A program made the position numbers and the translations under genes. DNA of 64,000 bases from an uncultured Gammaproteobacteria bacterium. Lineage in GTDB: Bacteria; Patescibacteriota; Microgenomatia; CAZETR01; Amesbacteraceae. The stretch lies in contig CAZFGX010000001.1 of NCBI GenBank assembly GCA_964518565.1, forward strand, positions 905,553 to 969,552, given 5' to 3'. The notes beneath the pieces were generated by a model. It was not told the origin of the DNA. It did not search any database and worked only from the letters and a program-made list of their open reading frames with translations. This document shows, piece after piece, positions 37,323-58,148 of the stretch; position 1 is the stretch's first letter; each line of letters opens with the position of its first letter.

Positions 37323-37811
37323 TTAATTTAGCAAATTATCATTCAGATCTATTTGCTTTTTGAGCTCCACAAAATAACTCCATTTTTTGTCCTGATCGGA
37401 AAGAGAATTATAAAAAGCCTTAATTGTTTTATGCATCTTCTTCCCAATAGATAAATGGGGCCAAGGTTTAGTTTTTGCTCCATACCGATTTCTGGTATAG
37501 GTTAAATGAGCAACCTGCTTATCAGCTTTTCTTGCAACAAACAACAAATCCTTCTTCATTGTTTTGTTTTGTTTAAAAGTAAATAGGTTAGATGAATAAT
37601 GATATGCGAACATGTCATCAGGTCGCCTAACTTTCATTCTCTTTGGATAGAAGAAATCAAGAAGGCTTCTGGCATGTATTGCAAATGCGTCAAGAAGAAT
37701 ATTAACTTCAATATGGTTTCTAGGAGTTAGTAAAAGTAATAAAGTTTGGTAGAACATCCAAATTTCATAATAAATATGCTCGGATGCCTTTTTTAACTTC
37801 CGTTTTGTCAT
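37323..37811 (-). CDS. hypothetical protein
   Basis: 162 aa, Lys-rich, in an AT-rich region adjacent to a tRNA. Confidence 0.35.
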   Translation of the reverse strand: MTKRKLKKASEHIYYEIWMFYQTLLLLLTPRNHIEVNILLDAFAIHARSLLDFFYPKRMKVRRPDDMFAYHYSSNLFTFKQNKTMKKDLLFVARKADKQVAHLTYTRNRYGAKTKPWPHLSIGKKMHKTIKAFYNSLSDQDKKWSYFVELKKQIDLNDNLLN

Positions 37812-37844: not shown

Positions 37845-38106
37845 CTCCCCCGCAGGGATTCGAACCCCGAACCTTTTCGTTACAAGAACCCTCGCATTAC
37901 TGCAAGGCTTGGACTATCTCATCGACCACATGGGCCGCCAGGTATATAGTCTCTACACATTTACTACATATATTTATATGTAGATTTAGCTCGGGATTGT
38001 CCTACAAATGTAGGAGTTCCCCGAATTAGCCTGATTTTTCCACTCGATGTTGCCACCAAGGGCTGCCAATTGACAGCGAATTGCTCTACCGTTGAGCTAC
38101 AGGGGA
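37845..38106 (-). tRNA. tRNA-Asn(GUU) interrupted by a ~190-nt putative group I intron
   Basis: Exon 1 (38106..38073): UCCCCUG-UA-GCUC-AACGGUA-GAGC-A-AUUCG-CUGU. Exon 2 (37882..37845): UAA-CGAAA-AGGUU-CGGGG-UUCGAAU-CCCUG-CGGGGGA-G. Joined, they give a standard cloverleaf with a U1-A72 start like E. coli tRNA-Asn, anticodon loop CUGUUAA and discriminator G. No CCA is encoded. Because both intron flanks carry a full loop, the splice position is ambiguous; an Asp(GUC) reading is possible but lacks the U-1/omegaG boundaries. Confidence 0.6.
37883..38072 (-). ncRNA. putative group I intron inserted in the tRNA anticodon loop (between positions 35 and 36)
   Basis: The 5' exon ends in U and the intron ends in G (omegaG). 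There is an R-like element AGAGACUAUA (plus 37945..37954) and an S-like element GAGAUAGUCC (plus 37911..37920) that could form P7 (GACUA/UAGUC). Several local hairpins. No ORF inside. Confidence 0.55.
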
Positions 38107-38227
38107 ATAAATTGTTAATGTAATTCACCTGTACCAACGGTTCCGTTGAGCTATCACGATCCCGCAATGCGGGAGAGAGATAGAGAAATTTAGCTTGGCT
38201 AAATTTCGATACAGGGGAATAAATTGT
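38098..38227. repeat. partial tandem duplication of the tRNA-Asn 5' end in its leader
   Basis: The 18-nt direct repeat tacaggggaataaattgt occurs at 38098..38115 and 38210..38227 (tRNA nt 1-9 plus 9 nt of leader). The D-arm block ccgttgagcta is duplicated at 38089..38099 and 38143..38153. Hairpins lie between (cccgcaatgcggg; aaatttagc-ttg-gctaaattt). Confidence 0.6.
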
Positions 38228-38280
38228 CAAACCACATTATACTGCACTCCAGCAAAACCTTGTAGAACCTACAAAAACCA

Positions 38281-38320
38281 CAAACACTCCTCACGGGCAG
38301 GAGTGTTCGTACAAAAAACA
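38281..38320 (-). terminator. rho-independent terminator downstream of the DUF378 gene
   Basis: The minus strand reads ACACTCCTgcccgtgAGGAGTGT (8-bp stem) followed by TTGTGGTTTTTGT. Confidence 0.6.
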
Positions 38321-57839: not shown

Positions 57840-57924
57840 GGAGGGGTCGCATAGTGGCCGAGTGCAGCGGTTTACTAAACCGCCATATCGCAAGATATCG
57901 CGAGTTCGAATCTCGCCCCCTCCG
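57840..57924 (+). tRNA. type II (Ser-like) tRNA whose anticodon reads ACU
   Basis: GGAGGGG-UC-GCAU-AGUGGCCGA-GUGC-A-GCGGU-UUACUAA-ACCGC, hairpin variable arm, GCGAG-UUCGAAU-CUCGC-CCCCUCC-G. A34 is unexpected for a bacterial tRNA-Ser (normally GCU). Confidence 0.55.
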
Positions 57925-58148
57925 CAGAAGGTCTTCGGTTGCTCCAAGACCCATCTACTATGCTCGATTAGCCCTATGTGGCTTGCTAAAAAGACGCTAA
58001 GAATCGCAAGTATCCCAAACATAGCCTGTAATGTATAAAATCGCCTAAATGGCCCTCAAGGTATTTGCGCTCGGTTCTAAGCTTTTGATGAAAAGAGCTG
58101 CTTTAGCCCTACGTTAGTGAAAAATCCTCGTTCTAATCTCGTTTTTCC

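Follow-up and report, generated by a model that had tools for sequence, protein, structure and literature searches.

Short group I introns at position 35/36 of the gene for asparagine transfer RNA (tRNA), tRNA-Asn(GUU), are known from Patescibacteria (Nakagawa et al., mSystems 2026, PMC13011429), and self-splicing in vitro was demonstrated in that work for introns of this type other than the one considered here. HNH genes are reported there only within introns, and limited mobility is inferred since most of the introns lack an internal endonuclease gene; upstream duplications of the 5′ end, GIY-YIG genes and free-standing endonuclease genes are not mentioned. Partial duplications of host genes next to free-standing GIY-YIG or LAGLIDADG genes have been described in fungal mitochondria (PMC7487136), while collaborative (trans) homing couples an intron lacking an open reading frame (ORF) with a neighbouring free-standing endonuclease, as for mobE/I-TevIII of phage T4 (PMC2790892, PMC3984707). 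Here we analyse a 64,000-nucleotide (nt) stretch of contig CAZFGX010000001.1 (hereafter the window), in which a minus-strand tRNA-Asn(GUU) gene at 38106-37845, interrupted by a 190-nt group I intron, is preceded by a broken second copy of its own leader and 5′ end. We favour, with a probability of roughly 0.55, the view that this upstream copy is a non-coding scar of rearrangement, arising from break repair or a template switch at an endonuclease hot spot, and is neither a second gene nor an integrase attachment (att) site.

Judged by its sequence, the downstream gene together with its intron is already published biology, being exactly of the type in PMC13011429: short, ORF-less, inserted after CTGT and missed by standard tRNA finders. 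The intron matches Rfam RF00028 over the full model (38082-37890; 71.2 bits against a gathering score of 50, E = 4.6e-16). Because the group I intron interrupts the gene, ARAGORN called no tRNA at 38106-37845 on the intact window sequence; on the joined exons it returned a canonical tRNA-Asn(GTT) with a normal cloverleaf. The splice junctions read CTGT/caatt...cttg/TAACG, with U closing the 5′ exon and G closing the intron. The gene is thus intact, and the elements of the locus, in the order in which the minus strand is read, are as follows (bp, base pair; MFE, minimum free energy).

38279-38311, minus strand: terminator-like hairpin (13-bp stem, then the T-run GTTTTTGT) of the upstream DUF378 gene (family from Pfam), the upstream limit of the tRNA transcription unit
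38236-38241, minus strand: TATAAT, -10-like, 17 nt upstream of nt 1 of the pseudo-copy; putative promoter by sequence reading, with no good -35
38210-38230, minus strand: pseudo-copy 1, in which the leader TTGACAATTTAT, differing from the real TTAACAATTTAT at one position, is followed by tRNA nt 1-9, TCCCCTGTA; from the repeat search
38185-38207, minus strand: hairpin 1, perfect 10-bp stem and 3-nt loop, from the inverted-repeat search and present in MFE folds
38160-38174, minus strand: hairpin 2, TCCCGC-ATT-GCGGGA, perfect 6-bp stem, unique in the window, from the inverted-repeat search and folding
38143-38159, minus strand: pseudo-copy 2, TCGTGA plus TAGCTCAACGG (tRNA nt 8-18), from the repeat search
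38123-38142, minus strand: AA spacer and inverted partial copy CCGTTGGTACAGGTGAAT, the reverse complement of about nt -3 to 18 with small gaps (p = 0.002)
38107-38118, minus strand: leader of the functional copy, TTAACAATTTAT, by sequence reading
38073-38106, minus strand: tRNA-Asn exon 1 (nt 1-35 in tRNA numbering, ending CTGT), from strand reading and the joined-exon tRNA call
37883-38072, minus strand: group I intron, 190 nt, without an ORF, at anticodon-loop position 35/36 (RF00028)
37845-37882, minus strand: tRNA-Asn exon 2 (37882-37846) and the discriminator base, from the joined-exon tRNA call

The core of the duplication is the 18-nt exact direct repeat ACAATTTATTCCCCTGTA noted in the initial annotation of this locus, which consists of 9 nt of leader and tRNA nt 1-9 and lies at 38098-38115 and 38210-38227, the copies being 112 nt apart. 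With one mismatch it widens to 21 nt, made up of 12 nt of leader and tRNA nt 1-9. Contrary to one way in which that annotation might have failed, the repeat greatly exceeds chance expectation: the probability that an 18-mer recurs within a few hundred bases is ~1e-8. A search for the 18-mer elsewhere, as proposed there, found no third copy in the 64-kilobase (kb) window with up to 3 mismatches allowed. A D-arm block, TAGCTCAACGG (tRNA nt 8-18), does recur upstream, at 38143-38153; its start lies 47 nt before that of the tRNA proper, not 114 nt as had been stated, and 54 nt away from the corresponding block in the gene, 112 nt being the spacing of the 18-mers. The two hairpins reported between the copies, GAAATTTAGC/GCTAAATTTC at 38185-38207 and TCCCGC/GCGGGA at 38160-38174, are both perfect. 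A third palindrome, CAACGG-AA-CCGTTG at 38135-38148, had been overlooked, as had the inverted partial copy of the 5′ end of the tRNA that begins with it (38123-38140; p = 0.002 against shuffled sequences) and the promoter-like TATAAT at 38236-38241 that the upstream copy adjoins.

Read 5′ to 3′, the minus strand therefore runs TATAAT, pseudo-copy 1, hairpin 1, hairpin 2, TCGTGA with pseudo-copy 2, AA, inverted copy, TACA filler, real leader and gene. The copies follow one another as direct, inverted, direct, the junction CAACGG-AA-CCGTTG being palindromic; at the second junction there is the 4-nt filler TACA, and a double-hairpin insert of 48-54 nt is also present. The upstream copy ends at nt 18, with neither a 3′ half nor an intron remnant there. 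Pseudo-copy 1 occupies the normal position of a tRNA start relative to the TATAAT or -10 box, and a TATAAT/TAAAAT box lies at a comparable short distance upstream of the tRNA in many other tRNA-Asn loci; a consensus promoter scan that required both hexamers did not report the box at 38236-38241. Read together, TCGTGA and TAGCTCAACGG give CGTGATAGCTCAACGG, which corresponds to nt 3-18 in tRNA-Asn genes from other lineages that have the acceptor TCCGTGA (score 27 against a shuffled maximum of 25), a weak hint that pseudo-copy 2 might be a piece of foreign origin. All 519 nt of the region are 100% identical in two independent Logan assemblies from other runs (three assemblies in all), so an assembly artefact is unlikely.

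Several candidate identities for the insert and leader were rejected. The 56-nt insert is flanked by TA on both sides and lacks the terminal inverted repeats of a miniature inverted-repeat transposable element or insertion sequence, and no other copy was found in the 64 kb with up to 3 mismatches; hairpin 2, being unique in the window, offers no sign of a mobile-element origin. No known RNA family could be assigned to the leader: no Rfam family reached its gathering score, and a permissive scan gave chance-level matches only (E ≥ 0.6).

On the reading we favour, the ancestral tRNA-Asn gene would have begun ~17 nt after its promoter, and a break or a replication template switch inside its 5′ part, near nt 9-18, would have produced the direct, inverted, direct arrangement. 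The original leader and 5′ end would have stayed at the promoter, where they are now split by the double-hairpin insert, followed by the inverted copy and then by a fresh leader and nt 1-18 leading into the intact, intron-containing gene. That gene would now be transcribed with a stably folding leader of ~125 nt to be removed by RNase P, after which the intron would self-splice to give a normal tRNA-Asn, and the upstream feature would probably be a neutral scar. The recombination footprint proposed in the initial annotation fits this picture, since the displaced, broken 5′ end is unable to make a tRNA and similar footprints occur at this gene elsewhere. By analogy with those other loci, attack by a free-standing homing endonuclease is the most likely trigger of the break, because the tRNA-Asn gene is a recurrent target of such enzymes; in that case the feature in the window would be a product or relic of such an attack that lacks an ORF. 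The suggestion of intron homing into a duplicated gene followed by decay fits only loosely: nothing points to a complete second gene, but a link to the intron and a homing endonuclease is plausible because the same position in other genomes holds free-standing endonuclease genes.

Modules of this kind are found repeatedly at the tRNA-Asn genes of other genomes. A pattern scan with one genome per species returned at least 119 loci (cited by number below), most with an intron-bearing tRNA-Asn; the listed loci come mainly from Patescibacteria, with Bacteroidota, Acidobacteriota and others also represented, and the 3′ exon and intron end could be placed in ~87 of the at least 119 listed. Each leader plus exon 1 was aligned locally with its own upstream 600 nt at a cut-off of z > 4. 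Among the matches listed, a direct 5′ pseudo-copy was found within 600 nt upstream in 18 of 117 GTDB loci, and an inverted one in 3; one further direct copy, at -829, brings the former to 19/117. A metagenome contig (L122) and a viral contig (L151; z = 8.7) provide further examples. These pseudo-copies carry 4-12 nt of leader and are broken up by GC-rich hairpins; their break points cluster at tRNA nt 9-13, and many resume and extend as far as nt 31-34, where the intron is inserted. The density of perfect GC-rich hairpins is 3.7 per kb in the pseudo-copy modules and 0.6 per kb elsewhere, a six-fold enrichment. Thirteen modules have no ORF between pseudo-copy and gene, and a significant inverted copy is present in 6 of these 13, the window included, compared with none of the 6 ORF-bearing modules (again among the matches listed). 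A conserved structured leader in relatives, which would have spoken against duplication, was not seen: L082, which has the most similar tRNA, has an ordinary leader without duplication. Upstream of the tRNA-Asn of L047, at a distance of 200-330 nt, two fragments resembling a tRNA (gggaatccctg...cgagcta) alternate with hairpins of the TCCGCC/GGCGGA type; these may represent additional tRNA pseudo-fragments studded with hairpins, lying on the opposite strand.

Both the module and the gene are associated with endonuclease ORFs. A hidden Markov model (HMM) search found a GIY-YIG, HNH or LAGLIDADG-like ORF within 1 kb of the gene in 30 of 119 loci, with 32 of the 34 HMM matches falling within 1 kb, and 8 of the 19 loci with a pseudo-copy have it adjoining a free-standing GIY-YIG or LAGLIDADG-like gene (all among the matches listed). 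GIY-YIG ORFs of 83-88 amino acids (PF01541, E = 1e-15 to 1e-18) lie between pseudo-copy and gene in L008, L012, L083, L102 and L109, and likewise in the metagenome contig L122. A family of ~225 amino acids, with an N-terminal helix-turn-helix and a LAGLIDADG-like C-terminal part whose best PDB match is I-DmoI at only E = 0.036, stands directly upstream of the tRNA-Asn gene in 11 loci, and an HNH family (phrog_2255, E = 6e-29) flanks the gene in 10, both among the matches listed. A pseudo-exon precedes or follows the LAGLIDADG-like ORF in L045, L053 and L088: in L045 the ORF is truncated and separates the pseudo-copy from the gene, and in L053 and L088 it borders the pseudo-copy.

The LAGLIDADG-like ORF of L042 carries at its 3′ end, ~50 to 30 nt upstream of tRNA-Asn, the sequence TTCCGCGATAGC, which is the 5′ end of a tRNA-Asn type from other lineages; the resident gene, 36 nt downstream, starts TCCCCTG. 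This looks like direct evidence of movement of the ORF between genomes along with part of exon 1. In L087 and L103, ORFs of the same family read into the tRNA (protein end ...SAIAQW). Fourteen IMG/VR viral contigs (L138-L151) carry an intron-bearing tRNA-Asn, 6 of them with HNH ORFs; these ORFs begin 240-440 nt downstream of the start of the tRNA, inside the intron or immediately behind it. Beyond downstream endonuclease ORFs, no 3′ pseudo-exons were found in L012, L022, L033, L062 or L101 by 3′-exon matches and sequence reading. Between the tRNA 3′ end and the downstream GIY-YIG ORF, L033, L062 and L101, all Stahlbacteria/WOR-3-type metagenome-assembled genomes, have from 1 to at least 3 tandem repeats of ~85-90 nt (gttattatttttcttaa...gatacctttttga...).

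These loci are close in layout to the systems introduced above. As in fungal mitochondria (PMC7487136), an endonuclease ORF stands beside the gene together with a truncated pseudo-copy in L008, L012, L083, L102, L109, L045, L053 and L088; unlike the protein genes of those organelles, the gene concerned here encodes a bacterial tRNA, the copies measure tens of nt, GC-rich hairpins are involved and the window has no ORF. As in collaborative homing, a conserved gene harbours a group I intron that lacks an ORF, and in related loci an endonuclease gene lies next to it; by analogy the intron could protect the host allele from cleavage. The arrangement differs in that the window has no endonuclease gene, pseudo-exons are not described in the phage systems, and the proteins here are known from sequence alone.

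A wider version of the same idea, which we offer tentatively and would hold somewhat doubtful, is that hairpin-studded 5′ pseudo-exons are the borders of widespread selfish cassettes that target tRNA genes, the window being an ORF-less derivative. Free-standing GIY-YIG, LAGLIDADG-like or HNH genes would supply a new 5′ exon or rebuild it and would mobilise in trans the tRNA-Asn introns without ORFs found in Patescibacteria and other phyla, and the conserved GC-rich hairpins would serve as immunity against self-cleavage, as nuclease recognition sites or as stabilisers of messenger RNA. The partially duplicated host gene expected at a cassette border occurs in the window and, with an ORF, in L042 and each of the loci compared above with fungal mitochondria.

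Several observations weigh against the neutral, endonuclease-triggered scar that we prefer. HMMs for the three families found no endonuclease ORF or remnant in the 64-kb window; because the window is without such an ORF, the endonuclease link is by analogy only. The GIY-YIG proteins of the other loci, at ~85 amino acids, consist of the catalytic domain alone, and their site-specific homing activity is putative. Pseudo-copies are also not limited to the intron-bearing gene. An intronless tRNA-Gln in L105 has an upstream 5′ pseudo-copy, and in the window itself an intronless tRNA-Ser(GGA) on the minus strand (47310-47221) has an exact 15-nt copy of its nt -1 to +14, at 47366-47352 against the original at 47311-47297, 55 nt apart. 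The serine copy lies immediately downstream of TTGCTA-N18-TAAAAT, which resembles a promoter, and the palindrome ATATCGAA-TGAGA-TTCGATAT comes next. The intronless control set comprised just 27 tRNAs, many in tandem arrays, so an enrichment of pseudo-copies at intron-bearing genes is not established, and such copies may be a general property of tRNA genes in these bacteria that has nothing to do with introns or endonucleases. Neither at tRNA-Ser(GGA) (p = 0.58) nor at the tRNA-Gln of L105 (p = 0.057) was the direct, inverted, direct pattern significant.

The conservation of the hairpins points the same way. In three Daviesbacteria the double hairpin is ~92% conserved, with a compensatory A/T swap, and the adjacent spacer is unconserved; at the GIY-YIG loci, TCAGCCAAAGGCTGA is identical in L083 and L102 though their GIY-YIG proteins share just 51% identity, and the hairpin of L012 is a compensated form (TCTGCC..GGCAGA as against TCAGCC/GGCTGA in L083 and L102). 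Compensatory conservation of this kind, read from the alignments, would be unexpected for a neutral scar, and the hairpins may have a function at the RNA or the DNA level. Another compensatory pair is GGGAGTC/GACTCCC and GGGTGTC/GACACCC (L053, L074, L118), and in both groups (L083, L102, L012; L053, L074, L118) hairpins of the pseudo-exons were kept across species while the neighbouring sequence and linked proteins diverged. Most of these hairpins start TC and finish GA, as does the acceptor stem of tRNA-Asn. We considered GATGATAAAAT, upstream of the Daviesbacteria modules, as a remnant of an endonuclease ORF and dropped it, as tblastn found none in L074 or L118 and the sequence fits equally an extended -10 box common upstream of these tRNAs.

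A search for the orthologous loci whose alignment the initial annotation called for yielded no close relative in the collections; among homologues of the flanking proteins, the nearest reach 63% identity and are not syntenic. Homologues of the 162-amino-acid protein encoded downstream (up to 63% identity) led to no locus next to a tRNA, those of the upstream DUF378 protein (up to 63% identity) led to loci without a tRNA, and a metagenome scan for the exact anticodon stem of the window gene gave 5 real tRNA-Asn intron loci, none a close relative.

Quasi-palindrome template switches and inverted triplications are known replication-based rearrangements, and a purely endogenous error of this sort, in which a template switch at a quasi-palindrome generated an inverted triplication that drifted to fixation in a small, repair-poor genome with no endonuclease involved, is an alternative we judge unlikely. 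It accounts well for the order of the copies, the near-perfect palindromic junction CAACGG-AA-CCGTTG and the inverted copy (p = 0.002), and agrees with a window that has no endonuclease gene. The tRNA-Ser(GGA) of the window, with its 15-nt exact upstream copy and ensuing palindrome, and the similar tRNA-Gln of L105 would be natural companions, although the inverted copy at tRNA-Ser is not significant. Such an error leaves unexplained the additional double-hairpin insert and the possibly foreign-type second block; the association of pseudo-exons with endonuclease ORFs at the same gene elsewhere also sets these loci apart from ordinary quasi-palindrome events.

Less probable again, in our view, is that the leader is a functional regulatory RNA made of a decoy, an anti-sequence and a target, in which the balance of pairings would tune tRNA maturation or intron splicing. 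The inverted copy would block folding of the tRNA by pairing with its real 5′ end, or elsewhere mask the 5′ splice site, unless the upstream decoy captured it first. Folding predictions are compatible with such a switch: the leader alone is predicted to form a stable four-way junction (-41.4 kcal/mol, z = -5.5), and once exon 1 is added the predicted MFE fold shifts to one in which the inverted copy pairs with the real 5′ end instead of pseudo-copy 1 or 2 (-49.4 kcal/mol). The inverted copies of L076 and L086 span nt 20-34 and with them the 5′ splice site, and the compensatory substitutions in hairpins of related modules and the enrichment of GC-rich hairpins could be taken as signs of function. 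Stable folding is, however, an automatic consequence of direct and inverted repeats. Modules of different lineages share no structure or sequence, several lack the closing stem, only 6 of 19 have the inverted copy, and Rfam gave no match. Parts of the pseudo-exons also decay, as in L118, whose pseudo-copy differs from its own gene at several positions, and no relatives of the window were found that could reveal covariation.

The att-site scar raised in the initial annotation, left by an integrase-driven element that entered tRNA-Asn and later departed, is very improbable. tRNA genes are classic integration sites, and att repeats usually cover the 3′ part of the tRNA and bound a kilobase-scale element with an integrase. 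The locus shares with such sites a direct repeat of part of a tRNA gene, homologues of the 162-amino-acid protein stand beside integrases, and G+C is lower at 30-38 kb. Here, unlike at att sites, it is the leader and 5′ end that are repeated, only 112 nt apart, and the inverted copy and hairpins between the copies are not products of a simple att crossover. A second copy of the 3′-terminal 24-mer of the tRNA was absent from the window with up to 3 mismatches allowed, and no integrase family was found among seven neighbouring ORFs scanned against Pfam, the other ORFs at 27-42 kb having been listed and not scanned. Chance similarity or an assembly artefact can be dismissed, given exact matches of 18 nt and 11 nt that are far above chance and a sequence identical in two independent assemblies.

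With regard to the surroundings, the 162-amino-acid protein is encoded directly downstream of tRNA-Asn (37323-37811, minus strand) and belongs to no Pfam family; its homologues, 50-63% identical, are found in type I restriction-modification operons, between hsdS and hsdR, or immediately following an integrase of phage type. Together with the lower G+C of the 30-38 kb region (0.38-0.40), this is compatible with a defence or mobile island that may abut the 3′ end of the tRNA, though no 3′ repeat was found. The window as a whole has a G+C content of ~42% and a strongly negative GC skew, which is nearly constant at about -0.2 to -0.4 over 58 kb and about 0 to -0.1 beyond; these values fit a small genome of Patescibacteria type. 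A plus-strand tRNA-Ser at 57840-57925, 20 nt after a tRNA-Ser(TGA), has the anticodon loop TTACTAA, that is, an ACT anticodon with A34 and not the usual GCT for AGY codons; this unusual A34 might be deaminated to inosine.

The recurrent combination of pseudo-exon, hairpins and endonuclease across genomes is a more interesting lead than the scar in the window. Among the matches listed, about a quarter of intron-bearing tRNA-Asn genes are flanked by a free-standing endonuclease-like gene (the 30 of 119 counted above) and about one sixth have a displaced 5′ pseudo-exon, neither of which appears in PMC13011429. Pseudo-copies and long structured leaders can confuse tRNA annotation. If the proposed link to free-standing endonucleases is true, the trans-mobilisation of tRNA introns in genome-reduced bacteria would become directly testable, and scars such as this one would record past invasions.

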